From: Aegotheles albertisi | Taxonomy: Eukaryota | Assembly: GCA_039906565.1 (NCBI GenBank) | Contig: JBDMAX010000536.1 | Coordinates: forward strand, 225,716 to 289,715 | Reading direction: 5' to 3' | DNA: 64,000 nucleotides | Shown here: positions 1 through 33,083 of the stretch, in pieces | How the letters are laid out: each line of letters opens with the position of its first letter | Position numbering within the stretch: the first letter of the stretch is position 1 | The notes under the pieces: generated by a model | What the model was told of the DNA's origin: nothing | Databases searched by the model: none | The model's input: only the letters and a program-made list of their open reading frames with translations | Program-made: the position numbers and the translations under genes

Positions 1-599
1 CAGAACACACCTCCCCTGGACTCCTTGGGGAAGTCACTCCGCGCTGGTGAGGCCACAGCTGGAGTTGCTCTGTCCAGTGCTGGGATCCCCAGTGCTGGAG
101 AGAGGCCAGGGATGGAGGATCATGGAGGGTCTGGAGCTTGCAGAGAGAGCTGGGGCTGCTTAGCCTGGGGAGAAGGCTCAGGGGGATCCTAATCTACGTG
201 CATGAACGTCCCATGGTATGGAAGGGGAGGGAGCCAGGCACCCCTCAGCAGTGCCCACAGGCAACGAGCACACATAAAACCCCCCAAATCCCCTCTGCAC
301 ACAAATACCCACCCTGGTCTGACTGTAAGGGCAGCTCAAACCCTGCACACGCTGTCCAGAGAGGTTGAGGAGTCTCCATCTTTGGAGATGCCAACACCCA
401 AGTGGACGTGGTCCTGGGCAGCTGCCTCTGCTCGTGCAGGGCTTGGGGCAGATCATCTCCAGGGGTCCCTTCTCCCCCGAGCCCCTCTGTGCCCCCACTG
501 GCAGCTGCTCCCCAGAGCACCCTGCAGGGAGAGCAGCACCATCGGGTACCGCACACACGGCTGCGGGATTTCAAACGCCCCGAGAGCCCCCACAGCCCC

Positions 600-1790
600 C
601 CCAGGCACACCGAGAGGCCTCGTTTCCAAGCGCTCCAGGGCAGCCGGCACTGCCCAGGCTGTGTCACGGGCCGGGCCCAAGCTCAGGCCGCCCCTCCATT
701 GCGTTCGGGCCCAGCTCTGCGAACCGCGCCTCACGCGGCCCCACGGGGCGTTCCCGCACACGCACGGGCGGCGCCCGCCCGGCTCGGCGCGTCGGCAGCC
801 GGCGAGGCTTTCCCCGGGCCGGCGCGGGGGTTTCTGTGCGGGGAGCCGGGGCCGAGCTCCAGGAGCGGCTCCTGCCCCGGCGGCCGCTGAGGAGCCCGCG
901 CCTGCGGGGCGGGGTCCTGGCGGGGCGGGGTCCTTGCGGGGCGCGGGGCGCCGCCGCGGTGCCAGCTCCTGCCCGGCCGCGGCACCGCCTCCGCCGGCGC
1001 GCGCGGGTCAGGCGAACGCCGCGGGCAGCTATGGCGGGGTCCTGCCGCGCGGCGCCCCTGGGCCCGCGCTGCCGGGCGCTCCGGGGGGTGCGCGCGGGGG
1101 AGGCGGCGGAGCGGGGTCGGGCCCGGCTGCGGCCTGGGGGGGAGCTGGGGGGGAGCCGGGGGCCCCGGCGGCGAGACCGAGCCTGCCCGGGCCCCGGGGA
1201 GAGCCCCGGGGAGGCGGCGGGGGCGGCCCCGGCCCCCTCGTGGCCTGCGCGGCTCGGCCTGGGCCAGGGCCCGGCGGCCGGGTCGGGGCCGGCTGGTTCC
1301 GGCACCGCGAACGCCCTTCCCGGGGGGCTTGGGCTGCGCTCCGCAGCCGCTGCTCTCCTGCCCCGCGCCCCCCGCCACGCACAGGGGGGAGCTGCGGTGT
1401 CGGTCCCCGGGCTCTGCGGGGGGGGGCGGCTCTCAGCTGAGCTCCGGCATCGCCCCGAGGCGACCTCGTGGGGGCCCCGTTCCCTGCCCGGAGGCCGCAG
1501 CCGCCTTTCCGCGCGGCTCCCCCGGTCGGACGCTGCTGGAGCCGGGCACAGCCCTGCCCTGCTCGGCCTGGCAAACGCTGCCGCTCGCAGCGTCCATCGG
1601 GGGGGCGCGGGTTGCCGGGCAGCCCCCAGCGACTGGATCCCAGTGCCACGGGGTGCTGGTGAGGGCCCTCGGCTCACGGCTGTGTCTGCACTCTCGGGAG
1701 TCTTTAGCTGCCTGCTCAGCACACGTTCCAGCTGCAGGCTGCGCTGGGGTTTGTGGATGATCACTCGTCTGTGGAGGTGAGAGCTGCGTG
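600..1790. promoter_or_regulatory. CpG island at the outer end of the left arm. Possible promoter or first exon. A GT donor-like site follows at 1786 (GGAG|gtgagagc).
   Basis: Very high GC and CpG density, with runs of gcggg/ccgcc. The long overlapping ORFs on both strands here are typical CpG-island artefacts. Confidence 0.6.
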
Positions 1791-3249
1791 TGGTCAGAGG
1801 GAGAGGAAAGGTTTGGGTTTCATAGATACACAAATCTATATTGCTGTCTGTTCACAGACATTGAACGTTCTGCAATGACTCTGTGAGCTATAACTGTAGC
1901 ACATGGCCTTCCTGTGTCAGTGCAGGGTGTTCGTGTTTCAGCACGAGACAAAAGTGGTGCTGTGCTGTTCAGTCCTTGCACTGTGTCTCTCGGATCTGCT
2001 CCTCTCTGCAGGTACCACGGGAATTGCTCCTGTCTGCTCGGGAATTACTGATTTGTTGTGCACTTTTCACCTGAGAAGAAGCACTTTGTCTCGCTCTGCT
2101 TTGCTCACCGTTGCTGTAGAACAAATTTCTCACAGTCCAGTCTGGTTTTTCACTTCCCATCTTGTGCGAGCCCTGGTGCAAACCCGAGAGGCTGCAGCTC
2201 CAGACAGGGGCAGGCTCTGACTGTCGCTGTTCTCCCTGAGCAGCTGCTGGAGCTGTGCCTGCCCGTGCCCCAGCAGCAGCGGGACTGGCCTGGAATCCCA
2301 GCTCTGCTGTGGGCTGTAACGCTCGCATGGAAACGGCGAAACCTGCTTGCTGGGCCTCGGCAGGGCTTCTGCTGGCCAAAAGCCTCCGGTGTTATTTCTG
2401 CGAGCCCCCAGCTCTGCGGTGCTGCAGGACGATCTGCAGCCAGGGCAGGGGATCTGCAGGGCATTGCAGCTGCAGGGGAGCTGTGGAGTTGGTTTGGGTC
2501 CGTGTGTGACAGCACAACAGCTGGAGAGGAGCTGTTTGCTGTCCTGCACAGCAGACGCACAGGTCACGGCGTTTGCCACGTGCCCCTGGCCACTGGTGAG
2601 GGAGCTCCCTGTGGGCTGGACGAGAAAACCGAGGAGGGGACATTTCCCAGGAGATGTTGTTGCTCAGGGCAAAACCTGGGCTCTGTAGCATTTTGTTTCC
2701 TGTTTCCCATGGTGATGTGAACGTGGGGGTGGTGCTGTTCAAAAAGAATGCTTCTGTCAGCCCCTGCATTCCAGGAGAAGGAGTGCTGCGTTGTCCCTCT
2801 GCGCTGTGCCACGCGCTGTGCCATGCGGACGGCGCGATGACAAACCCGATGGCCCGTGGCGTTTGGAGAAGCACATGGCCTGGACATGGTCACCTGGGGC
2901 AAGGGCAGGCAACGTGTGAGTACTGCCTGGCAGCAGCAGTGCTGTCTGTGCTGCACAGGCGTGATGCAGGTCCTGTGTGCGAGGGATCACTGCACCCCGA
3001 GCTGTTCATGGCTTGGGAAACCATTCGCCACCTCATTAAACCAACAGGAAAAACCAGCAGAAAGGAAGGCAGAGCGTGACAAGGGCTTGCTCTGCATCTC
3101 ATTTGTTCACTGGCGCTGATCTCCATCTGTTGTGTGTTTCCTTTTCCTTCTCATGCAAACCGTGGTGAAAACAGATACCCAGGAGGCTCCAGTGCTTCCA
3201 GAGAGTGGCTTGGCTGCTCGCGTGGTGAATCTCTGGTCACGTCTCCAGG

Positions 3250-3538
3250 AATGTGTGAATGGGGTCACAGAAAAATCGGGCAGCGTCCTGTTTGGGGCAG
3301 AAAGCGTGTTGGCTGTGCAGCTCTTGGGGAGGGCAGGAGGAGGCTGGCTTCCTGGGTCAGTGATGAGTGTTGGCATGTATTATCTGATGTGGAGGTGATG
3401 TCTATCCCCACTTTAGCTCTAGAATTACCCTGAGACCCAGGGAACTCCAGTTTCCCCCGGCAGTGACCTTTGAGCTTTTCCAGCGTGTGGAATCAAGTCA
3501 CTGCCACAAATCCTGTCCCAGCGCCAGGAGAAGGGGGG
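3250..3538 (+). repeat. Internal direct repeat, copy 1 (~290 bp), inside the left arm.
   Basis: Near-identical to 4841..5129 from gaatgtgtga...ggggtcaca to ...gccaggagaaggggggg. Encodes the shared ORF tail ...GQRPVWGRKRVGCAALGEGRRRLASWVSDECWHVLSDVEVMSIPTLALELP. Confidence 0.8.
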
Positions 3539-4320
3539 GGCACACGGTTGCTGTGCGTCCTTTTGTTTTCTTTTCTTTGTCTGTCGGGGGTGTTTTGATC
3601 AGGAGGAGGTGATTTGTTTTGAGCAGGCTTCTGCTGACTCAGGGGCTTTCTGGAGGTTGGACTTGCCTAGTGACCTCTTGAAACGTGGCCAGAAACGCCG
3701 CAGATGTCGTTTCCTGGGGAAAACAGAGGGATTTGCCCATTCCCGTGGATTTTATGACACGTTGTAATTAAACCTGGGGGTCAGGGGGTTGCTGGGGTTG
3801 TTGCTGACCTGCGTTCACTCGTTTCTGCCAGAGAATTCATTTGCTCTGGGGCTCGCCGTAGGGCGAGAGGAACGGGCAGGACCAATGCACAGCCTGGATG
3901 CAGAACAGTCCTAAATGTCGCCTCCGGCCCGCGGGGAGCAGTTTGAGCCTTCTGTTTGGTTTTGTTGGTTGTTTGGTTGGTTGGGTTTTTTTAAGAAAAT
4001 GTTAGTGTTTTGCCTGAGCTTTCAGTATCTTTTCCTAAAGGGTCATTTTGTTTAATCAATTTTGCACAGGGTTGCTGGCTGTAACGGCCTGGCTGCGTCA
4101 GGTAAACGTTGACCTGCTGGGTTGGTGGCTTCGTGAACGTCAGATGCCTTCTGGAAGCCTCGGCGTGCAACTGGAGAAGGTGTGAGGTGGCTTTTCTTTG
4201 TTCAAAGCTCATCGGGGATTAATTTTTGTCCCCAGAATTTGGGAGAATTCGGGGTGTGGAGTCACCAACGCGATTTGCGACATCGCGTTTGAAACAAAAC
4301 CAAAAAGTCACCGAATGCCA

Positions 4321-4850
4321 GAGTGGTTTGGGTTGGAGGGGACCTTAAAGCTCATCCAGTGCCACCCCACCGCCGTGGGCTTGTGTGCGCTTGGAGCTCA
4401 AAGAGCCCCTGGGATCCTGGGCTGTGTCACCTGCAGCGTGAGCAGCAGGGCGAGGGAGGGGGTGATGGTTCTCCTCATCTGCTCTGCTCTGCTCTGGTGA
4501 GAGCCCTCCCTGTAATGCTGGGGCCAGGTCTGGGCCGCCCCAGCATCAGAAGGACACGGAGCTGTTGGAGCGAGTCCAGAGGAGGCCACGGAGATGCTCG
4601 GGGAGCTGGAGCAGCTCTGCTCTGGGGACAGGCTGAGAGAGTTGGGGGTGTTCAGCCTGGAGAAGAGAAGGCTCGTGGAGACCTTAGAGCACCTTCCAGT
4701 GCCTGAAGGGGCTCCTGGAAAGCTGGAGAGGGACTGGTGCCAAGGGCAGGGAGTGATGGGACGAGGGGGAACGGGTTCCAACTGAAGGAAGATGGATTTA
4801 GACTGGATTTTAGGAGGTTCTTCACTGCGTGGGTGGTGGGAATGTGTGAC
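4321..4850. mobile_element. Two CR1 LINE 3' fragments arranged tail to tail: antisense 3' end at 4321..~4545 and sense ORF2 C-terminus at ~4546..4850.
   Basis: 4321.. reads ggttggaggggaccttaaagctcatccagtgccacc, the reverse complement of the CR1 3' terminus. The ORF at 4594..4785 gives the CR1 ORF2 motif [14 protein letters not shown]. Mirrored in the right arm at about 22789..23318. Confidence 0.7.
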
Positions 4851-5129
4851 TGGGGTCACAAAAAAATCGGGCAGCGTCCTGTTTGGGGCAGAAAGCGTGT
4901 TGGCTGTGCAGCTCTTGGGGAGGGCAGGAGGAGGCTGGCTTCCTGGGTCAGTGATGAGTGTTGGCATGTATTATCTGATGTGGAGGTGATGTCTATCCCC
5001 ACTTTAGCTCTAGAATTACCCTGAGACCCAGGGAACTCCAGTTTCCCCCGGCAGTGACCTTTGAGCTTTTCCAGCGTGTGGAATCAAGTCACTGCCACAA
5101 ATCCTGTCCCAGCGCCAGGAGAAGGGGGG
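4841..5129 (+). repeat. Internal direct repeat, copy 2, immediately 3' of a sense CR1 fragment.
   Basis: Same as copy 1. Mirrored copies sit in the right arm at about 22510..22798 and 24098..24386. Confidence 0.8.
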
Positions 5130-8100
5130 GACGCAGTGTGAGTTTTGGTCCATTTACGTGTTCAGAGGTCTGGTTCTTGGCCTGGTACTGGATGGTACTG
5201 GGAGATGCTTCGGCGTTATCTGGATGCGTCTCCGGATCCCCAGAGCAGAACAGTGTTCGCAAATGCTGCTGTAGAGATTTGGTGGCAAACTTAACGAGCC
5301 TGTCTTAACGAGCGTGCCTGTTCTTCCTTCAGCGATACGGTTTAGTCCCACCTTGACACCCAGAATATCTGAAGGGTCATGCTCACATCTGCCCGTGGTC
5401 ACCATTAACACACGTGTGCAGGTTTGCTTTTGAAGGGGCCTGGTGTGGTTGTCTCTTCTGTTGGGGTTCGTTGAGTTATCTCTGAGGTGGCGTCACGGCT
5501 CAGCGGAAGGCGTGTGATCCCTGAGGGAGCAGAGGAGGTCCTGTATTGCTTCCATTTTCTGCATTTCTTCAGCAGAAAAGACTTGCATCAGCCTGATCTC
5601 CAAATGACAGCGTTTCACACTTTGTGGGTAGGTTCAGCTTCAGGTTCTGACTTGGGTTAGGGTTGCTCCAAGTGTGTGCTGGGAGAGGTCTGTCAGGATG
5701 GACCTGCCCAGCAATCCCCCATCTGCAGGGCTGGCTTGGTCTGGGTCAGCTTCCCGGGCTGCATGTGCAAAAGAGAAGTTGCAGCTCTCTAGTCAGTCTT
5801 GATCTAAACCCAAGGTGGTTCCTGTTTGTGCCCAGACACCTGAGAGAGACCTAAATGTTTCAGGCAACCCAAGAGGAGGGCCCCGATGTTCATAAGAAAT
5901 TCTTAACAGCTGTTTTTGCAGGTGACTCAACTGAGGAGTGAGAACCTAAAGCTGCTGGGGCTCATCTAGCTGTAATGAGGATGGAATTAATTATTTAAGT
6001 GCACAGGGTAAGTGGCAATCAAGGTACTCAAATCTCACTCGCTCTCTGTCTTCTGGGATCTGTGCCTGGCATTGCTCACCAGGATTTTGCAGCTGCAGGG
6101 GCTGGAGGAATTAGCCAGGGTGGGGAGGAGGGAACAGCAGCAGCATCGATCCTTCTCTTCCCACTCTCTGTCTCTTTTGTCCATTTTCATTAGATCTTAC
6201 TGCTACCTATTAATGGGGATTTCAAAACCTCATAAAGAGCACAGAAGAGGATTGAAGAGGTGACTGAAGGAGATAGGAGGAGAATGTTTAAGAGCAATTG
6301 ATTTAATGGGAATAAACTGCTTCAGGTGAAGTCAGGCTCTTCACTTTAGAATCACAACAAACATCACACCACAAAACACACAGTCGCAACAGTGGGAGAT
6401 GCTTCACCTTGTTCTGATGAGAGATGTGGTTGCTTTCCAAACCTTTCAGTCCACCTTCTAGTCCTGAGATGCTGCAGGCAAGTCCGTTTCCTTTTTGTGT
6501 GAATTAAATCACCATCATTTCTGCGAAGAGCATGAGCCAGCACCATGTGGATGGCCAGAGGATTTGAAGGCAATCCTATGGTCCGTAGTAGAACATCACT
6601 GCACCACCCTGTGCAGTGCCAAAGCCAATAGCAGAGAGTATTTCCTCGTAAGGCAGCCCTAGGAGAGGAGCACCAGCAGCCTGTTTTGGAGAGTGGTCTT
6701 CACACCATTTCAGGGTGGCAGTGTGGTCTGGTGCAGGCTTGTGCTCCCACCAGGACTGCAGGCACACACAGGGCAAGTCAGAAATGGCACCGGGTGTTCC
6801 TTGGTGACAGAAACCCCAGCGCCCGCCGTCACACTTCTCACTGATTGGTGTGGCATGGGCTTGTCTTCTGAAATTTCTGCCTGAAAGGTAAGAGCTGGAT
6901 TTCGAAGGCATCCAGAGAGGCCCCAGGGTGTGTGCTAGAGCAGTGACTGGTTAGCGGTTACATTTTTAATGCAAGCACTGACATGTCAGAGTGGTGCCTC
7001 TGCTTCCTAGAACACCACCTGGGAACCTCTGAAAGTGTGCACCGCTTCTCCTCTCCTGCATCGATACATTTGCAGTAACTGAGAAACAAAATATAAATTA
7101 TTGCTTCATTTGCAGGCGGGAAAATGCAATTTCCAGTTGATGTTTTCCTTAGAAGACCATACCTAGGTATTAAAACCACATTACATTGCATTGCTCACAC
7201 TGTGCTCACACAGCAATCGGAAAATGACCTCTCTTGGAATTTTATTAGAAGTCTTAGAGATTTGGCAACACTGGTTATGGGTTTGCCCTCTCCCAAAGGA
7301 GGGAGTTAACCGGGGTCTGTCACTGTATTGGTCACCCCCTGCCTCACACCTCTGTTTGCTGCCTTGGCAGAAATTCAGTTGTCAGCCCTCTCACTTTCTC
7401 TCAGGAAGGGCAGGAGAGGCAAAGTCCCAAAGGGTGCTGTGGACTGCAAAGATGTGCCCTTAACTGTCCCACGGTTCATCAGTCACAACCATGGCCATTC
7501 ACAGGAATGGCCTTGTTAGGCTTTGTACACACCAGTGACTGGCTGCGAGTTGCTGAAATAAAATAGTTTAATAATGTCTTGTACTTCCAAATTTTGGTTT
7601 GGTGTCTGTGCTTGTCCTTTTACATTTCTTTTCTTGCACTTCTAACCTGTAGATTTTCATGCCTTATACTCAGTTGCACTCACACTTCTTTAAGGAAGAT
7701 GGGAAAAGCTGTAACCTCTCTGGTAAATGGCTGGAATGGAAGAATAATCTCTAAGCTTTAAGAAGACAAGCAATTGGCCAAACCCTTTTCCAAATCCAAT
7801 GGCCGTCTGCCTACCATTTGCAGACCATTCCCTGTGAAGGCAAAAAGCAAAGTGCAGTCAGGGAAAGGACTGAATTATTTGGGTGAGATGAAGGGCCTAA
7901 CCCCAACTTTGGAGAAAATCTGTCGTGGTTTATTTTTTGGCTCTCTATACTAAGTCATGCCCTTTGTTGGCCAAACCAGTGCAACTCCCTGGAGAGGGAA
8001 AGATGTTTATTTCAGATGTGAGCACTCGTTTCTCTTGTGGCTTAGCATCTCCCACTGTACCCCCACACATGCATTTCTTCAGGAACACTGTCTTACCCCT

Positions 8101-9380
8101 GAAGTCTAGTACAGCTTCCCGTCAGCCATTCACCTCTTGGCCACCACATGTTGTTAGTACTCCACACACTTCTTTCTGCCTTCGTTCCTCTGAATGTTTG
8201 GCTGCAGATGCCATTCCAGGTGACTGACTCCCTCCCAGGATTGCCTGGAGACACTCACCCTGCACACTAAAGCTGTGTAGAGATGCTGGCTTGTGCACAG
8301 GAAGGGATCAAGCAGCATTAGCACTCGACTGATTTCTGAATTGGAGCTCAGCTCTCTCCACACAGCATCACATTGTGCCATATGCACAGTCCTGAAGTGA
8401 TTTGCCATCCCGTGTAGAGAAAAGGTAAATAAACAATGAAAACATGTCAAAGTCCCTGCACCCTTTTAGCATGGAGGCCTGGATTACAGCCCATCAGCTG
8501 TATCTGTTTTCATAGCTATTGCACTGTGCCGTCAGCCCCGTGTTTTACTAATGCTGTGTTCCTGGGCATTGGGAAGGTCGTTTTGCAAGGGATGTTGTGC
8601 ACACTTGGCCTCTGCTGGGTTTGTGATAAAAAGCTACTAATGTTATTTACCTTGTTTCTCAAAAGTATTTGAAAATCTAGGTTAATTCACAACTGGTGGA
8701 GCAGGAAAAAACTACAAGAAGAGTTGGCACACAGAGGAAAACAAGCTTCCCACAGTGGGAAAAGGACTACAGTCTCCAGCTAGGAATGCTTGTGAACTCC
8801 TTGATGAACATCTAGAAATGCGCACGGCACTGACCTTTGTGTTCTCTCTTTCACTAGATTTTAATGTTGCTTTTTTTGTTGATGTGGGCTGGTGTATTCT
8901 TTTCATTATAGCTGTATGAAGCTAAAGAGGCTGCAAAATCATTTTCCTTCTCACAGGTCGGGTGAGGAATGGGAGTGAGTGTGTAAGGACCAGCCCAGGC
9001 CAATGTAGCTGACTGCACTGCTGCTGGTTTGCTAACCTCACATCTGTGAGACACTTCTCGTTCTGGCTTTGTGTTGAGGAAGGTCATTTTCCAAGCCAGA
9101 GCCCACCTCTTCACCTGCAAACATTCTGCACACATTTGCTGTTATTTATTAAAGGAAGTTCTCTTGGGCTTTTATTTTTAAGCTGTGTGGCGCAGACCTG
9201 CGTGCTTGTTTATCTTTAACATCCACCCTCACCTCACACTTACAGAGTAGCTTGCTGCCCAAAGGCATTGCTGTATCCAGAGGAAAGAGTAGGATAACTG
9301 CTCAAAGAAATGTTAAAGAGCAAGAGCTTCTGCCCTATGTGACTGAACTGTGTGTGTCGTGATTTTTTTCTTTGCTCCTT

Positions 9381-10465
9381 CACAGAATCACAGAATCCTA
9401 GGGGTTGGAAGGGACCTCGAAAGATCATCTAGTCCAACCCCCCTGCCAGAGCAGGGTCACCTAGAGCAGGTCACACAGGAACGCATCCAGGCGGGGTTTG
9501 AATGTCTCCAGTGAAGGAGACTCCACAACCTCTCTGGGCAGCTGTTCCAGTGCTCTGTCACTCTCACAGTGAAAAAGTTTCTCCTTATATTCACATGGAA
9601 CCTCATGTGCTCCAGTTTGCAACCATTGCCCCTTGTCCTATCATTGGTCATCACTGACAAAAGCTTGGCTCCATCGTCCTGCCCCTCACCCTTTACATAT
9701 TTGTAACCATGGATGAGGTCACCCCTCAGTCTCCTTTTCTCCAAGCTAAAGAGACCCAGCTCCCTCAGCCTCTCCTCATAAGGGAGATGTTCCACTCCCT
9801 TCATCATCTTTGTGGCTCTGTGCTGGACTCTCTCAAGCAGTTCCCTGTCCTTCTTGAACTGTGGGGCCCAGAACTGGACACAATACTCCAGGTGTGGCCT
9901 CACCAAGGCAGAAGAGAGGGGGAGGAGAACCTCTCTTGACCTACTGACCACCCCCTTTCTAATGCACCCCAGGATGCCATTGGCCTTCTTGGCCACAAGG
10001 GCACATTGCTGGCTCATGGTCATTTTCATGTCCACCAGGACCCCCAGGTCCCTTTCTCCTACACTGCTCTCCAGCAGGTCAGCCCCCAGCCTGTACTGGT
10101 GCATGGGGTTGTTCTTCCCCAGATGCAAAACTCTGCACTTGCCCTTGTTGAATTTCATTAAGTTTCTCCCCGCCCAACTCTCCAGCCTATCAAGGTCTCT
10201 TTGAATGGCAGCACAACCCTCTGGTGTGTCAGCCACTCCTCCCAGTTTGGTGTCATCAGCAAACTTGCTGAGGATACATTCTGTACCCTCATCCAGGTCG
10301 TTGATGAAGATACTGAACAACACCGGTCCCAGTACCGACCCGTGAGGGACTCCACTGGTCACAGACCTCCAACGAGATTCTGTCCCATTGACTACAACTC
10401 TCTGACTTGTTCCCTTTAACCAGTTCTTGATCCACCTCACTACCTGATCACCAAACCCATACTTT
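9381..10465 (-). mobile_element. CR1 LINE, 5'-truncated. ORF2 reverse-transcriptase C-terminal region plus 3' UTR.
   Basis: ORF 9457..10440(-), 327 aa, with [42 protein letters not shown] and [13 protein letters not shown] motifs. The 3' tail ...gaggtcccttccaacccctaggattctgtg is present in antisense at 9381..9440. Confidence 0.9.
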
Positions 10466-13400
10466 ATTAGCTTATCTACGAGGATGCTCCTTCACGCAAT
10501 TGTTTTCATAATAACGGGGTATTGGGCAGTCTGAAACCCTGCCTCTAGAATCTTACACAAAGTTTCACTTTGCTGCCCATCTGTACTGCGAAAAGGAATG
10601 GATTCAGCCCTGCTCTTTGCAGGTATTGATAGATCCTAGTTGATGCTGGAGTAAAATTGTCTGTGTGTGTTCTGATTCCACTAACGCAAATTCATTGCTC
10701 GTGCTTGGGTAACAGCTGTTGGCCACAGAGATTGATGCTTTGCACATTCCCAGGGTGGGTTGCTGGGTGACTGTAATTGATGCCATTAATTCAAGGGACA
10801 CAGGGCAGAGGTGTTACAGAGACTCACTGTGCATAACAGTGTGCTGCACAAGCTGCACTTCCCAGCTGGCACACATGGATACAACCCCTTTTCATTCTGG
10901 AGTGATGCTGATGTTTATTGGTTATGGATTTAATGAGCATTTTAAACCTGTTCCCTTGGGGGGTTGTTCCTGATGTAGTATTCAGCATGTATTTCTCACA
11001 AAAAGCAGTGTCTAAGAGGAGGAAGCAATTCCCAACTAATAAATCAAGAGAGATATACTTACAAAGTAATTTGTTTTTCTTCCCAAACTGGAGTCCTTAG
11101 CTTAAATCTTTCAGGAGACATTTGTGAACTGAATCCCGGCTGCCTAAGTGGATTTTCTTTCAGTGTTGCTAAACACTGAGATTCTATTGGTGTGTGCACA
11201 CTACCAGCAAGTGCGAGTACAGCTGCTACATGGCAACTTGTAAAATCTAAGGTGATAGACTCCAGAAGGTCATGGAGTGCAGCTGAACATTAAAATAGTT
11301 TGCAGATGACCTCCTAGCAGCTCCATTAGCAAGGACTCTACTGTTCACAGAAACCCAAGCTGAACACTAGACAGTAACAGTGAGCTTACATTCTGCGATT
11401 AGATGTATGGCAGATTGATTTTTCTTCCCCACTATAGGGAGCGAGTTCTTTCATTGCTGCTTTTTTGTTGTCAATACTGTTTAATCAGACTGACAGAAGA
11501 TGGGCAGCTGGTGTGGCAGCTCCTGGTTAGCAGTGCTGTCCTGCAGGGAGTCTGGCTGTTGAGTCGGTGCCAGGGGAAATGTTCCATTTATTTTTACAAA
11601 GACTTAAAGTCCCTTTGTGGGTGTAAAGTGTTTGGTCTGCTGCCAATTGTTCCAGAGCATGTGCCTCTGCTTGTGCCATTATGAAGATCCATAGGATATT
11701 GAGGCACTGTCATTAAATTTCCTTACTACTGATGTTCTCAGGACTCTCGTGACTGAAAAAACATCACCTTGAGAAATTTTATTTTTATGACGTCTCAAAT
11801 ATGACCCACTGCCTTTGAAACTAGTTCTGCATAGGGGCAGTAGCTTGGTTCACAGAAGATGCTCTTGTCACCCTTTCACAAACCTCTTGTGCTGTGTTTT
11901 CACACTGCAGGTCTGGGACAATTACCCACAGCCACCTTGGCACTGGCGAGAGGAGAGAGAAGAAGAGAGAAGCAGTGTGGGATGTGGCAGCACTAAATCG
12001 TCTCTGTCCCCTCTGGGCTGTTGACTTGAAACCCTTGGTCTTTGCCACACCTTTGAGATGAAGAGCAGATGAACATGCATCATTGCTTTGATGTTCCATC
12101 TCTGTTAATGAGATGTTGAGGTGCTCATATGCAGGAAGTTGCTCAGTTCCCCCGATTTTTTTTCTCAACAACTTTCTGCATTATTTGTGATACCAACCAG
12201 TTGTTACCCAGCTCCCAGCTATATAAGCAGGCAGATACTTGTTTCTGACTCTGGGCAGAAAATAGTATGGCTGTGGACATTAGCTTCCACATGGGTGTTG
12301 GGTTTTGGTTTGGTTTTGTTGGTTTTTTTTTTCAAAAGACTTCAGGGATTAAATTCCCAGGTAGTGAAACAGATGTTGGACCATTAAAGAGAGTGAATGA
12401 CAACAGCTGGACAGCTGGTCTTAAGTCCTGACAGGCAAATAGAATTACAATAGTGTTGTAAAAAGCCTTTTTTCTCCCTGTTGTTCATATTCAGAAGCTG
12501 AAATACATGAGATAAGGAGTTGGCATCATGGGAAACATTGTGCAAACTGGACCATCTCAAAGCTATGATCATTGCTTGTACTGCAGCACTTGAAAAACTT
12601 AAAAATTTGAGCTTGAATGTTCAGCATCCTGATGATACTGACTGGAAAGAGGCCAAATTTCCCCTACAGTCTCCCTTCTAAAGGATGTGACTATCCAATA
12701 ATGTCTCCCCTGTTCTTCTGGCTTAGGGAGGCAGCTAGGAAACAGATACACAGACTAGAAATGCTTTCTCTCTCAGAGTAGCCAAAGCTGCAAAAAAAAT
12801 CCAGACTTTAGAGAACATGCTTACAAACAAAGGAAGCTTTGCTGAGTCCAAAGCGTGCCTTGGGCCAGCTTCCAAGAGTAGTGAAGGAATATTTTGGCAG
12901 AAACCTGGAGAAAAACTGACACTTGTGCCAGCTGCTGCTCTGCTGTTCACTGAAGTCAAGCTGTGGCCAAACAGAGCTTCCCTGCCTGAGCCAGTGCAGT
13001 TCTCTGCCCATGCAGACAGTCATAGCAGGCAGCATCAGGTGCTATTCATCCTGAGGGGGGGGGGAAATAAGCCAGGGACTGTTTGCCTTTCTCACCAGGA
13101 AGAGAGATTTATTTAAATTAGAGACCAGCATTGTCATTTTCAGCTGCTTCCTCAGATTTCACGTGTGAGAAGTTGGACAGGAAATCTTCCTTGGTCAGGC
13201 AGGAATTCAGGATCTGCCTTCTGCTTTAGTCCTCCTGCAAAATAGGCAGGTTTCAATCAGCAAGCTTTCCACATGCAAATTATATGTCAGAGCCCAGCAA
13301 TGGACACCAGGCCAGGTGAGCAGGACAGAGTCATGCAGCAAAAGCCATTAAGCAGTCACTGCCCTTGGGGATCAATCATTAATAATGATGTATACCCTCC

Positions 13401-17664: not shown

Positions 17665-19514
17665 CTGTGTGGGAAAAGCAGAGATGTGCAAATCTGCCAC
17701 AGTTTGACAAGCCCTAATGGAAATGTTTCTGTCTAACCCAGCATGGTCCCTGACATCTCCAAAACAAACCTGCTAGCACCTGGGTTTTTTCCTAAGAGAC
17801 CTTGAAGTGGCCAAAAGGTCAGGTTTCTGTTAATTAGGCAAACCTGACCAAATCCTCTTCCTGTATATTACTAAAGATCAGTTGCTAAATGGCAGCCATG
17901 TGGATTGGTCATAGTGGCAATGCCACACAGATTGTTCGTATTGCTCAGCTGATCTCCTGTGTCATAGTCCTTATTTTGAGGGAATGATTTTTGCTTCTCA
18001 GTCCAAAGTCTTTGGAGCAAGAGGGTAAATGCTGGCAGGTAACTGGCAGCTGATGCTGTGATAAGGAACATCCTGAGTCACCAGGACACAGTGACTTGTC
18101 CCAGGAACCGTAACACTTTGTTTAAGAAACTGCTCTCAGGTGAAAATATTTAATACTTGTCACCTGTCACCAGTTTGCTGTGCTCACTGGTATGGGCTAT
18201 GACACCATGTTGGGACTGGTTTTTCCAAACTCACTGCCAACACTGTCTTGGGCTACACCTGCAACCGGTCACAGACACTGCAACTAGCAGAGATGGCAAT
18301 CACAATTCAGTGGTCCAAACCATCTGCTTGACCCAATTCTGACCCTCTTTGAGCTACATCAAACAGAGGAGCTAAGCAGACTGAGGGGCTGAGAGTGTAT
18401 CAGAGAAGACATGAAGCTTCTCATTCTCTGGAATGTTATTGGGACACAATGCTATTGTTCACATATCAGTTCAAAAGGTTTGCTACAAATCATTTCCTTT
18501 GCTTCTCATTTTTGACAGATGAAAGAAAAGTAACAGCCGTTTCAGGCTGAGACATTTGGCTTTGTAGCATTGCGACTCAATACAGATGCAGATCGATACT
18601 GAATAGAGATGCAATGAGTCTTCCCTACTTGAAGATCCAATATGCTGGAAAGGAACACTGTTTTTCAAGGCTAAGTTCCCAATGGTTGGGGGGGGAAGGA
18701 CCTTGCTAGGGGAGGAGATGGGTGGGGAGAACAATTTGTTTTTCATGGTCAACAGTGGCTGCTTGTTGTGTGTGGCAAAAAGAGCCATAATGCCTGAGCA
18801 CCATGTATTTATGCTCTGTCATGGCCTTAGCTGTAGCTCCCCTCAGCATGTGGGGAGACAGTGGGGTTATTGTATGTTCAGTTACTAAAGGGGAAGCCCT
18901 GGGGTTGGTGGCAACCCCTTGCTCTCTGGGTGTGGAAGCTGTGGGTGGCTCCAGACCAGGTGCCAGTGCCTGGTTGCTGCCTCCCAGAGACAGTCCTGGG
19001 AGGAAATGGGGGGTTTGTTGCTTTACAAGGGCAACTCCTGTGTTGTGTAAGCGCCGCACTGCAGCTCCGGAGGCAAAGGAGTGCTGGTGCTGACTGAATG
19101 GTACCCCACACTTTGATCTGGGGCACCCCGCCTCCCAAACCTGTCCCAGGTTTGCCTTTCCCAGGGGTGTGGGGAGGTGGGGGGCAGAGCATCTTTGTGC
19201 CAGCTGCCTGCAATGTAAACCTCGTGCACATGGCGAAACGTGGGAATTGCCCATTGCTCCCCTCATCTCCCAAGCAGACTTTGTCAGGGGACAGGCACTC
19301 AGACGGCACCACCGAAGCCAGCAGTGTAATTCCTATCTTTGCACACATGGTCTCACACCCAGTGGGATGCTGGGAGCCACCCTCGGACTCCCTTCCCAGC
19401 AGGCAGCCACTGACCAAGAGCTCTCCTCAGTGCCGGCCCTCACAGAACCCCTGCGGGGGTCTTGCAGGCAGGACATTGACCTCTAATGTGGTGTTTCTCT
19501 GTGTGTTGGTGCAG

Positions 19515-19644
19515 GGCCCTCTACACCAGCCTGGTGGGCCTCTGGGTGACCCAAGCCTGCACGGCCCTGTGTGGGCTGTCCCTCTGCTCCATCTGCAAGG
19601 ACTGCAACCCATGGATGTCCCAGCAGGTGTTGGCATTTAACCAG
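19515..19644 (+). CDS. Single SLC5A8-like exon on the plus strand, opposite to the other SLC5A8-like exons.
   Basis: gtgcag|G GCC CTC TAC ACC... translates to ALYTSLVGLWVTQACTALCGLSLCSICKDCNPWMSQQVLAFNQ, followed by a gtaggg donor. Human SLC5A8 has [45 protein letters not shown]. The frame is intact within this exon. Confidence 0.7.
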
Positions 19645-20139
19645 GTAGGGCCCCACATTTCAGGGGAAGGTGGCAAGGGGAAATCCTGCCTCTGCAGCCA
19701 GAACAGGTGGAAACCTGAAGGAAAATAAGTTATTCCTGTCAGTCAGATTCTTTTGGTGGAAACTGGAAACAAGATACTAAAAAGACCAACTTGTCTGTGA
19801 AAAAATGGTTCACCAGAAGAAAACCTTAAAATTCCTATTTCTTTCCAACTCTCGTATGTTGCAAAGGCCAACAGATGACAGTTTCCATGATAAGGAAATT
19901 GCTCTCGGGTACCCTCAGGTTATCAAACTGTATCCAAAACCCTTTTTGTGGAGTTAACAGCAGACAGAAGCATCTACTGTGGCACCCAAGCCCAACAGAG
20001 TGATGTACAATACAGACTATCTGCTGCCATACGCCCTTGCCAGTGGAAACAGAGCCTGACGGCACGCTCACCTCTGCTGGGTGCTCTAAAAAGACTGCAG
20101 GATCTCAAGTGGATGTTTTAGGATTGGTTTTCTCTGTAG

Positions 20140-23100
20140 AATGGCCATGGTTGTGACTGATGAACCGTGGGACAGTTAAGGGCACATCTTTGCAGTCCAC
20201 AGCACCCTTTGGGACTTTGCCTCTCCTGCCCTTCCTGAGAGAAAGTGAGAGGGCTGACAACTGAATTTCTGCCAAGGCAGCAAACAGAGGTGTGAGGCAG
20301 GGGGTGACCAATACAGTGACAGACCCCGGTTAACTCCCTCCTTTGGGAGAGGGCAAACCCATAACCAGTGTTGCCAAATCTCTAAGACTTCTAATAAAAT
20401 TCCAAGAGAGGTCATTTTCCGATTGCTGTGTGAGCAAAGTGTGAGCAATGCAATGTAATGTGGTTTTAATACCTAGGTATGGTCTTCTAAGAAAAACATC
20501 AACTGGAAATTGCATTTTCCTGCCTGCAAATGAAGCAATAATTTATATTTTGTTTCTCAGTTACTGCAAATGTATCTATGCAGGAGAGGAGAAGCGGTGC
20601 ACACTTTCAGAGGTTCCCAGGTGGTGTTCTAGGAAGCAGAGGCACCACTCTGACATGTCAGTGCTTGCATTAAAAATGTAACCGCTAACCAGTCACTGCT
20701 CTAGCACACACCCTGGGGCCTCTCTGGATGCCTTCGAAATCCAGCTCTTACCTTTCAGGCAGAAATTTCAGAAGACAAGCCCATGCCACACCAATCAGTG
20801 AGAAGTGTGACGGCGGGCGCTGGGGTTTCTGTCACCAAGGAACACCCGGTGCCATTTCTGACTTGCCCTGTGTGTGCCTGCAGTCCTGGTGGGAGCACAA
20901 GCCTGCACCAGACCACACTGCCACCCTGAAATGGTGTGAAGACCACTCTCCAAAACAGGCTGCTGGTGCTCCTCTCCTAGGGCTGCCTTACGAGGAAATA
21001 CTCTCTGCTATTGGCTTTGGCACTGCACAGGGTGGTGCAGTGATGTTCTACTACGGACCATAGGATTGCCTTCAAATCCTCTGGCCATCCACATGGTGCT
21101 GGCTCATGCTCTTCGCAGAAATGATGGTGATTTAATTCACACAAAAAGGAAACGGACTTGCCTGCAGCATCTCAGGACTAGAAGGTGGACTGAAAGGTTT
21201 GGAAAGCAACCACATCTCTCATCAGAACAAGGTGAAGCATCTCCCACTGTTGCGACTGTGTGTTTTGTGGTGTGATGTTTGTTGTGATTCTAAAGTGAAG
21301 AGCCTGACTTCACCTGAAGCAGTTTATTCCCATTAAATCAATTGCTCTTAAACATTCTCCTCCTATCTCCTTCAGTCACCTCTTCAATCCTCTTCTGTGC
21401 TCTTTATGAGGTTTTGAAATCCCCATTAATAGGTAGCAGTAAGATCTAATGAAAATGGACAAAAGAGACAGAGAGTGGGAAGAGAAGGATCGATGCTGCT
21501 GCTGTTCCCTCCTCCCCACCCTGGCTAATTCCTCCAGCCCCTGCAGCTGCAAAATCCTGGTGAGCAATGCCAGGCACAGATCCCAGAAGACAGAGAGCGA
21601 GTGAGATTTGAGTACCTTGATTGCCACTTACCCTGTGCACTTAAATAATTAATTCCATCCTCATTACAGCTAGATGAGCCCCAGCAGCTTTAGGTTCTCA
21701 CTCCTCAGTTGAGTCACCTGCAAAAACAGCTGTTAAGAATTTCTTATGAACATCGGGGCCCTCCTCTTGGGTTGCCTGAAACATTTAGGTCTCTCTCAGG
21801 TGTCTGGGCACAAACAGGAACCACCTTGGGTTTAGATCAAGACTGACTAGAGAGCTGCAACTTCTCTTTTGCACATGCAGCCCGGGAAGCTGACCCAGAC
21901 CAAGCCAGCCCTGCAGATGGGGGATTGCTGGGCAGGTCCATCCTGACAGACCTCTCCCAGCACACACTTGGAGCAACCCTAACCCAAGTCAGAACCTGAA
22001 GCTGAACCTACCCACAAAGTGTGAAACGCTGTCATTTGGAGATCAGGCTGATGCAAGTCTTTTCTGCTGAAGAAATGCAGAAAATGGAAGCAATACAGGA
22101 CCTCCTCTGCTCCCTCAGGGATCACACGCCTTCCGCTGAGCCGTGACGCCACCTCAGAGATAACTCAACGAACCCCAACAGAAGAGACAACCACACCAGG
22201 CCCCTTCAAAAGCAAACCTGCACACGTGTGTTAATGGTGACCACGGGCAGATGTGAGCATGACCCTTCAGATATTCTGGGTGTCGAGGTGGGACTAAACC
22301 GTATCGCTGAAGGAAGAACAGGCACGCTCGTTAAGACAGGCTCGTTAAGTTTGCCACCAAATCTCTACAGCAGCATTTGCGAACACTGTTCTGCTCTGGG
22401 GATCCGGAGACGCATCCAGATAACGCCGAAGCATCTCCCAGTACCATCCAGTACCAGGCCAAGAACCAGACCTCTGAACACGTAAATGGACCAAAACTCA
22501 CACTGCGTCCCCCCCTTCTCCTGGCGCTGGGACAGGATTTGTGGCAGTGACTTGATTCCACACGCTGGAAAAGCTCAAAGGTCACTGCCGGGGGAAACTG
22601 GAGTTCCCTGGGTCTCAGGGTAATTCTAGAGCTAAAGTGGGGATAGACATCACCTCCACATCAGATAATACATGCCAACACTCATCACTGACCCAGGAAG
22701 CCAGCCTCCTCCTGCCCTCCCCAAGAGCTGCACAGCCAACACGCTTTCTGCCCCAAACAGGACGCTGCCCGATTTTTTTGTGACCCCAGTCACACATTCC
22801 CACCACCCACGCAGTGAAGAACCTCCTAAAATCCAGTCTAAATCCATCTTCCTTCAGTTGGAACCCGTTCCCCCTCGTCCCATCACTCCCTGCCCTTGGC
22901 ACCAGTCCCTCTCCAGCTTTCCAGGAGCCCCTTCAGGCACTGGAAGGTGCTTCAAGGTCTCCCTGGAGCCTTCTCTTCTCCAGGCTGAACACCCCCAACT
23001 CTCTCAGCCTGGCCCCAGAGCAGAGCTGCTCCAGCTCCCCGAGCATCTCCGTGGCCTCCTCTGGACTCGCTCCAACAGCTCCGTGTCCTTCTGATGCTGG

Positions 23101-26100
23101 GGAGGCCCAGACCTGGCCCCAGCATTACAGGGAGGGCTCTCACCAGAGCAGAGCAGAGCAGATGAGGAGAACCATCACCCCCTCCCTCGCCCTGCTGCTC
23201 ACGCTGCAGGTGACACAGCCCAGGATCCCAGGGGCTCTTTGAGCTCCAAGCGCACACAAGCCCACGGCGGTGGGGTGGCACTGGATGAGCTTTAAGGTCC
23301 CCTCCAACCCAAACCACTCTGGCATTCGGTGACTTTTTGGTTTTGTTTCAAACGCGATGTCGCAAATCGCGTTGGTGACTCCACACCCCGAATTCTCCCA
23401 AATTCTGGGGACAAAAATTAACCCCCGATGAGCTTTGAACAAAGAAAAGCCACCTCACACCTTCTCCAGTTGCACGCCGAGGCTTCCAGAAGGCATCTGA
23501 CGTTCACGAAGCCACCAACCCAGCAGGTCAACGTTTACCTGACGCAGCCAGGCCGTTACAGCCAGCAACCCTGTGCAAAATTGATTAAACAAAATGACCC
23601 TTTAGGAAAAGATACTGAAAGCTCAGGCAAAACACTAACATTTTCTTAAAAAAAACCAACCAACCAATCAACAAAACCAAACCGAAGGCTCAAACTGCTC
23701 CCCGCGGGCCGGAGGCGACATTTAGGACTGTTCTGCATCCAGGCTGTGCATTGGTCCTGCCCGTTCCTCTCGCCCTACGGCGAGCCCCAGAGCAAATGAA
23801 TTCCCTGGCAGAAACGAGTGAACGCAGGTCAGCAACAACCCCAGCAACCCCCTGACCCCCAGGTTTAATTACAACGTGTCATAAAATCAACGGGAATGGG
23901 CAAATCCCTCTGTTTTCCCCAGGAAACGACATCTGCGGCGTTTCTGGCCACGTTTCAAGAGGTCACTAGGCAAGTCCAACCTCCAGAAAGCCCCTGAGTC
24001 AGCAGAAGCCTGCTCAAAACAAATCACCTCCTCCTGATCAAAACACCCCCGACAGACAAAGAAAAGAAAACAAAAGGACGCACAGCAACCGTGTGCCCCC
24101 CCCTTCTCCTGGCGCTGGGACAGGATTTGTGGCAGTGACTTGATTCCACACGCTGGAAAAGCTCAAAGGTCACTGCCGGGGGAAACTGGAGTTCCCTGGG
24201 TCTCAGGGTAATTCTAGAGCTAAAGTGGGGATAGACATCACCTCCACATCAGATAATACATGCCAACACTCATCACTGACCCAGGAAGCCAGCCTCCTCC
24301 TGCCCTCCCCAAGAGCTGCACAGCCAACACGCTTTCTGCCCCAAACAGGACGCTGCCCGATTTTTCTGTGACCCCATTCACACATTCCTGGAGACGTGAC
24401 CAGAGATTCACCACGCGAGCAGCCAAGCCACTCTCTGGAAGCACTGGAGCCTCCTGGGTATCTGTTTTCACCACGGTTTGCATGAGAAGGAAAAGGAAAC
24501 ACACAACAGATGGAGATCAGCGCCAGTGAACAAATGAGATGCAGAGCAAGCCCTTGTCACGCTCTGCCTTCCTTTCTGCTGGTTTTTCCTGTTGGTTTAA
24601 TGAGGTGGCGAATGGTTTCCCAAGCCATGAACAGCTCGGGGTGCAGTGATCCCTCGCACACAGGACCTGCATCACGCCTGTGCAGCACAGACAGCACTGC
24701 TGCTGCCAGGCAGTACTCACACGTTGCCTGCCCTTGCCCCAGGTGACCATGTCCAGGCCATGTGCTTCTCCAAACGCCACGGGCCATCGGGTTTGTCATC
24801 GCGCCGTCCGCATGGCACAGCGCGTGGCACAGCGCAGAGGGACAACGCAGCACTCCTTCTCCTGGAATGCAGGGGCTGACAGAAGCATTCTTTTTGAACA
24901 GCACCACCCCCACGTTCACATCACCATGAGAAACAGGAAACAAAATGCTACAGAGCCCAGGTTTTGCCCTGAGCAACAACATCTCCTGGGAAATGTCCCC
25001 TCCTCGGTTTTCTCGTCCAGCCCACAGGGAGCTCCCTCACCAGTGGCCAGGGGCACGTGGCAAACGCCGTGACCTGTGCGTCTGCTGTGCAGGACAGCAA
25101 ACAGCTCCTCTCCAGCTGTTGTGCTGTCACACACGGACCCAAACCAACTCCACAGCTCCCCTGCAGCTGCAATGCCCTGCAGATCCCCTGCCCTGGCTGC
25201 AGATCGTCCTGCAGCACCGCAGAGCTGGGGGCTCGCAGAAATAACACCGGAGGCTTTTGGCCAGCAGAAGCCCTGCCGAGGCCCAGCAAGCAGGTTTCGC
25301 CGTTTCCATGCGAGCGTTACAGCCCACAGCAGAGCTGGGATTCCAGGCCAGTCCCGCTGCTGCTGGGGCACGGGCAGGCACAGCTCCAGCAGCTGCTCAG
25401 GGAGAACAGCGACAGTCAGAGCCTGCCCCTGTCTGGAGCTGCAGCCTCTCGGGTTTGCACCAGGGCTCGCACAAGATGGGAAGTGAAAAACCAGACTGGA
25501 CTGTGAGAAATTTGTTCTACAGCAACGGTGAGCAAAGCAGAGCGAGACAAAGTGCTTCTTCTCAGGTGAAAAGTGCACAACAAATCAGTAATTCCCGAGC
25601 AGACAGGAGCAATTCCCGTGGTACCTGCAGAGAGGAGCAGATCCGAGAGACACAGTGCAAGGACTGAACAGCACAGCACCACTTTTGTCTCGTGCTGAAA
25701 CACGAACACCCTGCACTGACACAGGAAGGCCATGTGCTACAGTTATAGCTCACAGAGTCATTGCAGAACGTTCAATGTCTGTGAACAGACAGCAATATAG
25801 ATTTGTGTATCTATGAAACCCAAACCTTTCCTCTCCCTCTGACCACACGCAGCTCTCACCTCCACAGACGAGTGATCATCCACAAACCCCAGCGCAGCCT
25901 GCAGCTGGAACGTGTGCTGAGCAGGCAGCTAAAGACTCCCGAGAGTGCAGACACAGCCGTGAGCCGAGGGCCCTCACCAGCACCCCGTGGCACTGGGATC
26001 CAGTCGCTGGGGGCTGCCCGGCAACCCGCGCCCCCCCGATGGACGCTGCGAGCGGCAGCGTTTGCCAGGCCGAGCAGGGCAGGGCTGTGCCCGGCTCCAG

Positions 26101-27636
26101 CAGCGTCCGACCGGGGGAGCCGCGCGGAAAGGCGGCTGCGGCCTCCGGGCAGGGAACGGGGCCCCCACGAGGTCGCCTCGGGGCGATGCCGGAGCTCAGC
26201 TGAGAGCCGCCCCCCCCCGCAGAGCCCGGGGACCGACACCGCAGCTCCCCCCTGTGCGTGGCGGGGGGCGCGGGGCAGGAGAGCAGCGGCTGCGGAGCGC
26301 AGCCCAAGCCCCCCGGGAAGGGCGTTCGCGGTGCCGGAACCAGCCGGCCCCGACCCGGCCGCCGGGCCCTGGCCCAGGCCGAGCCGCGCAGGCCACGAGG
26401 GGGCCGGGGCCGCCCCCGCCGCCTCCCCGGGGCTCTCCCCGGGGCCCGGGCAGGCTCGGTCTCGCCGCCGGGGCCCCCGGCTCCCCCCCAGCTCCCCCCC
26501 AGGCCGCAGCCGGGCCCGACCCCGCTCCGCCGCCTCCCCCGCGCGCACCCCCCGGAGCGCCCGGCAGCGCGGGCCCAGGGGCGCCGCGCGGCAGGACCCC
26601 GCCATAGCTGCCCGCGGCGTTCGCCTGACCCGCGCGCGCCGGCGGAGGCGGTGCCGCGGCCGGGCAGGAGCTGGCACCGCGGCGGCGCCCCGCGCCCCGC
26701 AAGGACCCCGCCCCGCCAGGACCCCGCCCCGCAGGCGCGGGCTCCTCAGCGGCCGCCGGGGCAGGAGCCGCTCCTGGAGCTCGGCCCCGGCTCCCCGCAC
26801 AGAAACCCCCGCGCCGGCCCGGGGAAAGCCTCGCCGGCTGCCGACGCGCCGAGCCGGGCGGGCGCCGCCCGTGCGTGTGCGGGAACGCCCCGTGGGGCCG
26901 CGTGAGGCGCGGTTCGCAGAGCTGGGCCCGAACGCAATGGAGGGGCGGCCTGAGCTTGGGCCCGGCCCGTGACACAGCCTGGGCAGTGCCGGCTGCCCTG
27001 GAGCGCTTGGAAACGAGGCCTCTCGGTGTGCCTGGGGGGGCTGTGGGGGCTCTCGGGGCGTTTGAAATCCCGCAGCCGTGTGTGCGGTACCCGATGGTGC
27101 TGCTCTCCCTGCAGGGTGCTCTGGGGAGCAGCTGCCAGTGGGGGCACAGAGGGGCTTGGGGGAGAAGGGACCCCTGGAGATGATCTGCCCCAAGCCCTGC
27201 ACGAGCAGAGGCAGCTGCCCAGGACCACGTCCACTTGGGTGTTGGCATCTCCAAAGATGGAGACTCCTCAACCTCTCTGGACAGCGTGTGCGGGGTTTGA
27301 GCTGCCCTTACAGGCAGACCAGGGTGGGTATTTGTGTGCAGAGGGGATTTGGGGGATTTTATGTGTGCTCGTTGCCTGTGGGCACTGCTGAGGGGTGCCT
27401 GGCTCCCTCCCCTTCCATACCATGGGACGTTCATGCATGTAGATTAGGATCCCCCTGAGCCTTCTCCCCAGGCTAAGCAGCCCCAGCTCTCTCTGCAAGC
27501 TCCAGACCCTCCATGATCCTCCATCCCTGGCCTCTCTCCAGCACTGGGGATCCCAGCACTGGACAGAGCAACTCCAGCTGTGGCCTCACCAGCGCGGAGT
27601 GACTTCCCCAAGGAGTCCAGGGGAGGTGTGTTCTGC
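20140..27636. repeat. Right arm of the large inverted repeat. It probably continues past 27636, pairing with sequence left of the window.
   Basis: Mirror of 1..7500. About 1% substitutions are visible as amino-acid changes between mirrored ORFs. One indel is visible: ORF 4398..4967 is intact on the left but split on the right as 22672..23094 and 22814..23242. Confidence 0.9.
25850..27040. promoter_or_regulatory. CpG island at the outer end of the right arm. Mirror copy of 600..1790.
   Basis: Same composition as the left-arm island. ORFs 25803..26972(+) and 25856..27271(-) mirror 664..1833(-) and 365..1780(+). Confidence 0.6.
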
Positions 27637-27689
27637 CAGCACTGAAAGAAGAGTAAAAAACCTCTCCAGAATTCCTTCTTCTTGGGAAA

Positions 27690-31948: not shown

Positions 31949-32236
<288 letters not shown>

Positions 32237-32906: not shown

Positions 32907-33083
<177 letters not shown>

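Follow-up and report, generated by a model that had tools for sequence, protein, structure and literature searches.

How does a stretch of DNA come to lie twice, in opposite orientations, beside the same gene, and what does such a structure carry? The question is raised by a 64,000-nucleotide (nt) segment of the Aegotheles albertisi genome (assembly GCA_039906565.1, contig JBDMAX010000536.1, positions 225,716 to 289,715 of the forward strand), referred to here as the window, in which a large inverted repeat is found next to ACADM. A preliminary description had reported a palindrome directly downstream of ACADM, with 7.5 kilobase (kb) arms of about 99% identity and a 12.6 kb spacer. On balance we favour the view that this palindrome is a genuine, neutral inverted segmental duplication that arose via microhomology-mediated joining. 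Its features are those of an unremarkable, seemingly real rearrangement scar and not of a new kind of element.

The geometry of the repeat was borne out by both BLAST and global alignment. The left arm (1-7500, + strand) is 99.6% identical to the reverse complement of the right arm (20139-27635, - strand) over 7506-7510 alignment columns, and a seed-and-extend scan returned inverted-repeat pairs that tile the two segments against each other. A match of 7.5 kb at this identity is beyond chance. Counted base by base, the arms differ by 21-23 substitutions and four small indels summing to 7 nt, not well below the ~99% first proposed; the indels include GTTG at 3964-3967 and CA/T at 4675-4676 versus 22962-22965, locating the frameshifting difference that had been predicted. 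The inner edge is as sharp as described, identity being lost entirely past 7500/20139. At the other end base 1 of the window pairs with 27635, and 27635 is therefore set by where the window begins and is not the outer arm edge. As already pointed out, the left arm is truncated by the window edge: 7,500 nt are visible, and the arm is at least 7.5 kb long. The visible arm end lies 1.7 kb downstream of the ACADM stop codon. Between the arms, the spacer (7501-20138) measures 12,638 nt and, apart from CR1 fragments, has no second copy in the window as judged by self-BLAST. The 64 kb window contains no N.

Both arms carry a CpG island at the outer end, in the mirrored positions given earlier. The left island (1-2200) has a GC content of 0.69-0.74 and a CpG observed/expected ratio of 0.70-0.81, the right island (25436-27635) has 0.69 for both values, and the ratio in the spacer is 0.16, versus ~0.70 in the islands. 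By its position relative to ACADM, which is as in penguin, the right-arm island is the ancestral RABGGTB promoter island. The mirrored open reading frames (ORFs) from the preliminary description are present in the arms, but they are not genes: the long ones sit in the 2 kb GC-rich island and overlap on both strands, and they are read-through of GC-rich non-coding DNA. What the arms really contain is a CpG promoter, a RABGGTB remnant and SNORD45.

In mammals, the C/D-box small nucleolar RNA (snoRNA) SNORD45 is hosted in introns of RABGGTB, the human gene containing SNORD45A, SNORD45B and SNORD45C. Four SNORD45 genes (Rfam RF00279) were found in the arms, two on the + strand of the left arm (copy a, 3355-3439; copy b, 4946-5030) and two on the - strand of the right arm (copy b, 22609-22693; copy a, 24197-24281). 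All score 59.8 bits against a gathering threshold of 42 and are identical across 126 nt; no change relative to falcon and penguin is seen in the C, D', C' and D boxes or in either guide element. Each arm holds its two genes within a direct repeat (3248-3564, + strand, with its partner at 4839-5155 and mirrors at 22484-22800 and 24072-24388), of which BLAST aligns 292 nt at 99.3% identity. Between the two left-arm copies lies a decayed RABGGTB exon for residues 197-236 (4063-4182, + strand; mirror 23458-23577, - strand), 65% identical to human RABGGTB 197-236, in which the motif GGLNGRPEK has become GSLGVQLEK. A PDB search matched it to RabGGTase beta residues 197-235 (E = 4e-12). No other RABGGTB exon was detectable in the window with a human RABGGTB probe, and this absence is meaningful since the probe proved 100% identical to human RABGGTB (PDB 6o60_B). 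A functional gene would require a complete exon set for a 331-residue prenyltransferase repeat protein, and one exon is all that was found. Nor was an intact protein-coding gene family found in the arms; the Pfam scan, run in six frames over 5851-12050, covered the inner arm (5851-7500) as well as the adjoining part of the spacer and returned zero families. Read from its sequence, the arm is a dead RABGGTB that presumably survives as a non-coding SNORD45 host. In the left arm the host-gene remnant reads on the + strand, toward the spacer.

The orientation of the right arm can be compared with other birds. As outgroups we used the ACADM loci of falcon and penguin with 10 kb of flank each, a span that stops short of the place expected for a second arm. 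In the right arm the order is the one seen in both, namely ACADM, CpG island, SNORD45, and the arm is colinear with their ACADM-downstream region up to window position 21754; beyond this point falcon and penguin align with each other for only ~350 bp more. No inverted repeat was found within 10 kb of ACADM in either species. Downstream of ACADM, falcon (locus 22700-24100) has one SNORD45 and a weak RABGGTB exon-like match (E = 0.046), and penguin (locus 25200-31200) has two SNORD45 genes together with RABGGTB pseudo-exons containing stop codons. The penguin SNORD45 unit is itself a 4.5 kb tandem duplication, with a 243-nt repeat that is 98% identical (25140-25382 / 29672-29914) and with duplicated remnants of RABGGTB exon 2. 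This suggests that the SNORD45-bearing region duplicates repeatedly in birds. To judge by sequence, RABGGTB beside ACADM (2200-5900 and its mirror in the window) is a decayed pseudogene in all three lineages, with SNORD45 intact, and thus a snoRNA host only. MSH4, the human neighbour of RABGGTB, left no trace in the window, in falcon or in penguin when searched with an unvalidated probe. In chicken, an annotated RABGGTB has been reported near MSH4 on GGA8 (PMC8469556). The pheasant ACADM locus, with exons 74-79% nt identical to those of the window, has an ankyrin-repeat gene downstream and neither SNORD45 nor RABGGTB; it is too diverged to serve as an outgroup.

The spacer consists of three blocks. 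Its left part, block U (7501-12012), is non-coding, shows no homology to SLC5A8 in a direct comparison and contains a CR1 long interspersed nuclear element (LINE) fragment at ~9380-10491 on the - strand. The remainder confirmed, by profile, PDB and comparison with the ibis locus, that SLC5A8-like exons lie on both spacer strands. Block S3 (12013-18648, - strand) comprises decayed SLC5A8 introns and exons for residues ~396-562 and corresponds to ibis positions 27451 to 20340 in descending order; a CR1 fragment interrupts it at 16949-17403. Block S1 (18643-20141, + strand) is oriented opposite to S3 and holds a decayed intron together with the exon that encodes residues 261-320 (19495-19656). 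With a profile of 113 bird SLC5A8 proteins, profile positions 287-334 were placed on the + strand at 19516-19659 and positions 396-579 on the - strand between 17668 and 13139, and positions 1-286 and 335-395 had no match in the window. The best PDB match of the exons was human SMCT1 residues 409-498 (E = 3e-28). At the nucleotide level the homology extends through the introns: ibis SLC5A8 locus 20390-27451 aligns to window 18582-12013 (- strand) with 79-88% identity and 15946-18461 aligns to 18643-20141 (+ strand) with 74-79% identity, the intervening ibis positions 18461-20340, which we call S2, being absent from the window.

Is this a gene put at risk by the arm-to-arm recombination that, according to the preliminary description, can invert the spacer of such structures? 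The exons are 82-89% nt identical to ibis (84-89% in S3), no better kept than the introns, and frameshifts are present. A functional SLC5A8 (SMCT1) would show a full SSF-domain ORF in one orientation, and this was not found. By its sequence, the SLC5A8-like DNA, which makes up most of the spacer, is no gene but a long-dead partial copy of the 3' half with introns included. Falcon and penguin lack it in the 10 kb downstream of ACADM. A 97-residue SLC5A8-like query returned only two protein matches, and an exhaustive search of representatives, followed by one with a full-length protein, was needed; the full-length search found canonical SLC5A8 on other chromosomes and no syntenic paralogue. The mixed orientation of the exons had also been presented in connection with flipping of the spacer. 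This part of the description did not hold, because recombination between the arms turns the whole spacer and keeps the relative orientation inside it; spacer flipping cannot yield exons on both strands, and their cause is an internal junction at ~18646. Non-allelic homologous recombination between the inverted CR1 copies at 9388-9842 and 16949-17403 was considered as another source and rejected, as the exons flanking 16949-17403 share one strand. The same inverted CR1 pair is a substrate for further inversion.

The junctions can be read to the base. Junction J1 (18646-18648) is of the inversion type and joins position ~20340 of the SLC5A8 copy (descending) to ~15946 (ascending), with a 3-bp microhomology, TGG. 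At junction J2 (20139-20141) the SLC5A8-intron homology ends at 20141 and the right-arm homology begins at 20139, the two sharing GAA. At 7500, the left arm runs into block U without recognisable discontinuity. Self-BLAST detected no repeats at 7500, 18646 or 20139, and homologous recombination is unsupported there because no driving repeat was found. A few shared base pairs without a long repeat, as observed at J1 and J2, are what is expected of non-homologous end joining, microhomology-mediated end joining or microhomology-mediated break-induced replication (MMBIR). The arm identity stops exactly where unrelated, much older sequence starts, so J2 must have arisen at or after the duplication; an older J2 would require the duplication to have broken at precisely the same base.

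A two-step history would account for this arrangement. The duplicated unit would be the region immediately 3' of ACADM, i.e. the RABGGTB CpG promoter and the dead RABGGTB with its two SNORD45 genes, and the route would be replication template switching or end joining beside an old, dead partial SLC5A8 copy. The ancestral order, from left to right, would have been S1, S2, S3, U', arm (minus) and ACADM (minus), U' being the ancestral counterpart of block U. In the first step, a reversed copy running from inside S3 through block U and the arm toward ACADM would have been joined to the start of S1 at J1, producing a large palindrome with a 4.4 kb spacer (S1 + S2). In the second step, in the same event or later, a deletion of ~13.5 kb would have taken S2, S3 and U' out of the right-hand copy and so given rise to J2. 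The junction at 7500 would then probably be ancestral sequence and J2 a rearrangement scar, and the left arm would continue past the window edge, possibly into a second ACADM copy. The outcome would be four identical SNORD45 genes and two promoters facing each other across the spacer. No function is required by this scheme, and the structure is probably neutral. We favour this history because it covers every block, both microhomology joins and the complete loss of S2. Large palindromes rearrange mainly at the spacer and inner arms (PMC8327919), a tendency with which the two-step history agrees.

The differences between the arms bear on the age of the duplication. Substitution divergence is 0.28%. 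With bird neutral rates of 1.2-3.3e-9 per site per year, this corresponds to 0.4-1.2 million years, provided that no conversion has occurred. The differences are unevenly spread: the interval 3747-4687, between the two SNORD45 repeats, holds 13 of the 24 (binomial p = 1e-6) and is ~1.4% diverged, versus ~0.17% elsewhere in the arms. The clustering fits patchy gene conversion over an older duplication, to go by the sequence pattern, though it may instead mark a mutational hot spot. Either the arms are young, at less than about 1 million years, or gene conversion between them is homogenising them in patches. CpG sites account for eight of the 21 substitutions and 12 of 21 are transitions, and because of these counts we read the differences as germline mutations and not as sequencing errors. 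The earlier proposal of a real inverted duplication, young or homogenised, is thus favoured by the join at J2, the CpG-site substitutions and the clustering, but falls short of proof.

Several observations weigh against the microhomology-mediated duplication as outlined. An arm divergence of 0.3-0.4% is within bird heterozygosity, and a single locus, present as two haplotypes, could account for both arms. The small sample of differences has a transition/transversion ratio of 1.3, lower than is typical of bird point mutations. Falcon and penguin are 15-20% diverged and their alignment is lost at 5885/21754, 1.6 kb short of the arm edge; because the outgroup alignment stops there, neither junction is polarised directly. 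At the five outermost arm differences (198-479 versus 27157-27438) the left arm has the outgroup base and the right arm the derived base, a pattern predicted by neither a simple paralogue model nor a haplotype model. The two-step history itself is the most economical path found, but it may not be the only one. J1 may stem from an earlier inversion that had nothing to do with the duplication, the ACADM-side copy then having been inserted at J2. In either history the junction at 7500 is ancestral and J2 is derived; the two-step history requires the arm to pass the window edge, and the older-J1 history allows it. As a separate observation, the outermost 500 bp are old CR1-derived sequence, and the right-sided changes could, for instance, have come from a different CR1 copy by ectopic conversion.

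All real readings taken together, we regard it as quite probable that the duplication exists in the genome. The foremost competing explanation is an assembly artefact, in which a single arm was duplicated when the other haplotype or a chimeric read path was stitched in reverse. False duplications are common in vertebrate assemblies, birds included (PMC9516828), and this adds to the plausibility of such an error here. The divergence of 0.28-0.4% is in the avian heterozygosity range and the differences resemble real polymorphisms, the left arm leaves the window so that the outer join is outside the view, and an exact look-up of ORFs from the window gave no independent record of the sequence. On the other side, the window has no gap or N. 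An artefact would typically place the copies at a gap or contig end, or let the arms meet without a spacer, and within the window neither is seen. The 12.6 kb of unique spacer rules out a missed-adapter hairpin. The three specific junctions at 7500, 18646 and 20139 would each need read support, J1 and J2 are clean joins with 3-bp microhomology in an old decayed pseudogene, and the strong clustering of arm differences is unlike heterozygosity. We therefore consider an artefact unlikely, if still the explanation to be taken most seriously besides a real duplication.

Less likely again is an older, larger palindrome maintained by conversion, of which the visible 7.5 kb would be only the inner arm end. 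It draws on the fact that the arm reaches the window edge and on the uneven divergence (~1.4% versus ~0.17%), which fits conversion tracts over an older duplication. ACADM provides a further argument. The coding exons (29353-39736, - strand; exons from 39736 to 29356, stop codon 29355-29353) specify a conceptual product of 381 residues that is 96-99% identical to Neoaves ACADM proteins, and exon 5 contains an in-frame TGA at 36259-36257 (GAG TGA GCT); the corresponding codon is TTG in falcon, TTA in penguin and CTG in pheasant. This is a single-base nonsense change in an ORF otherwise ~98% identical to Neoaves ACADM. It may reflect a sequencing error or a heterozygous null allele, or it may point to a second ACADM copy, given which the codon would be tolerable. 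ACADM-like loci are annotated in several birds, and SNORD45 units are tandemly duplicated in penguin too. Against this, falcon has one ACADM place per assembly, the 10 kb flanks of falcon and penguin lack an inverted repeat, nothing in the window shows the arm passing 27635, and the visible arms are without an intact protein-coding gene. A selective version, in which a larger conversion-kept palindrome duplicates ACADM and is maintained for the dosage of SNORD45 (and ACADM), with CpG promoters convergent over the dead SLC5A8, seems to us improbable; dosage selection is pure conjecture. If true, it would be an autosomal analogue of the sex-chromosome palindromes with a snoRNA as the selected cargo.

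Finally, staggered breaks are known from the Drosophila inversion literature to leave inverted duplications on either side of an inversion, and the spacer does hold an inversion-type junction, but the reading of the arms as duplicated ends of a simple inversion, with the spacer as the inverted segment, is very improbable, as it predicts the order S1, arm, U, S3, arm, is contradicted by the observed order of arm, U, S3, S1, arm, and would not place J1 inside the spacer, 1.5 kb from the arm instead of at the arm edge.

If the microhomology-mediated duplication is real, the locus is a well-resolved natural case of kilobase-scale palindrome formation followed by central trimming, with both junction sequences readable against an outgroup gene. 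The SNORD45 gene set would be doubled, and the arms would offer a substrate on which 12.6 kb next to ACADM could invert recurrently. Without another copy, the nonsense codon in ACADM would not be harmless. In birds a dead RABGGTB appears to be retained next to ACADM purely as a SNORD45 host. For annotation the locus is a warning, since the mirrored ORFs, the SLC5A8-like exons and the RABGGTB-like exon are not genes. Should the structure prove to be an artefact, it would be useful for testing quality control in assembly.

Other features of the window and of ACADM were noted in passing. Reverse-transcriptase fragments of CR1 LINEs occur at 9380-10491, 16949-17403, 41619-42648, 54249-54932 and 27698-28010; at least four CR1 fragments of the window are 95-96% alike and one older fragment is ~81% alike, which suggests a recently active CR1 subfamily. 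The CR1 fragments also mark the DNA as that of a bird. RBBP6-like exons lie 12-24 kb upstream of ACADM (52538-52741, 53980-54402 and 56344-56571, - strand); they encode a RING finger, a zinc knuckle of the RBBP6 type (Pfam zf-CCHC_2, E = 1e-9) and the motif QAVNNF. This RBBP6-like neighbourhood differs from that of human ACADM, with SLC44A5 and LHX8. At 46965-48757 (- strand), in a second GC-rich block (GC 0.65, CpG observed/expected 0.29), two overlapping ORFs of 360-432 residues gave no Pfam match. In Motacilla, two ACADM protein types are 93.5% alike and, with the diverged pheasant locus and the ACADM-like loci annotated in several birds, this may reflect unresolved ACADM paralogy or relocation.

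How does the structure compare with known systems? Large palindromes have been defined by arms of >8 kb, identity of >99% and a unique spacer (PMC8327919). Here the identity is 99.6% and the unique spacer measures 12,638 nt; the visible 7.5 kb is just under the 8 kb cut-off, the arm being cut by the window. Primate sex chromosomes carry large palindromes (P1-P8 on the Y and 26 of them on the human X) that likewise have inverted arms of >99% identity and a unique spacer of kilobases, and their spacers and inner arms are sites of deletion and rearrangement (PMC8327919), as proposed here. In contrast to these, the visible arms carry the remnant of a snoRNA host in place of an intact protein-coding gene family, the ACADM context is probably autosomal, and the palindrome is seen here in the sequence of one species. 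Concerted evolution of the sex-chromosome type would show as a palindrome common to related species whose arms resemble each other more within a species than between species; the 10 kb flanks of falcon and penguin, which end before the expected place of a second arm, contain no inverted repeat. Among birds, Davis, Thomas and Thomas reportedly described in 2010 a W-linked palindrome of New World sparrows and blackbirds with near-identical arms, ascribed to gene conversion. The present structure resembles it in being a bird palindrome with near-identical arms, whereas the W palindrome is sex-linked and common to several species and this one is known from a single sequence.

False duplications in assemblies (PMC9516828) are alike in that the copies differ at about the level of heterozygosity. 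Typical ones are tandem and located at gaps or contig ends, whereas this repeat is inverted and gap-free, with 12.6 kb of unique spacer and specific junctions. In human genomic disorders, fork stalling and template switching (FoSTeS)/MMBIR, duplication-triplication/inverted-duplication (DUP-TRP/INV-DUP) structures and fold-back inversions occur with 2-5 bp of microhomology. FoSTeS/MMBIR duplications are matched here by an inverted copy beside the original, the 3-bp joins J1 and J2, a small inverted block and a deletion; those cases are recent pathogenic events with parental controls, whereas the history given here is reconstructed from one sequence. The content of the arms has its own parallel. 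GAS5 and the SNHG family are non-coding snoRNA host genes and, as in these hosts, the coding part of the arm has decayed and the snoRNAs are intact. As in mammals, SNORD45 adjoins RABGGTB exon sequence; human RABGGTB is a functional enzyme gene, whereas the ACADM-adjacent copy is a pseudogene here, in falcon and in penguin.

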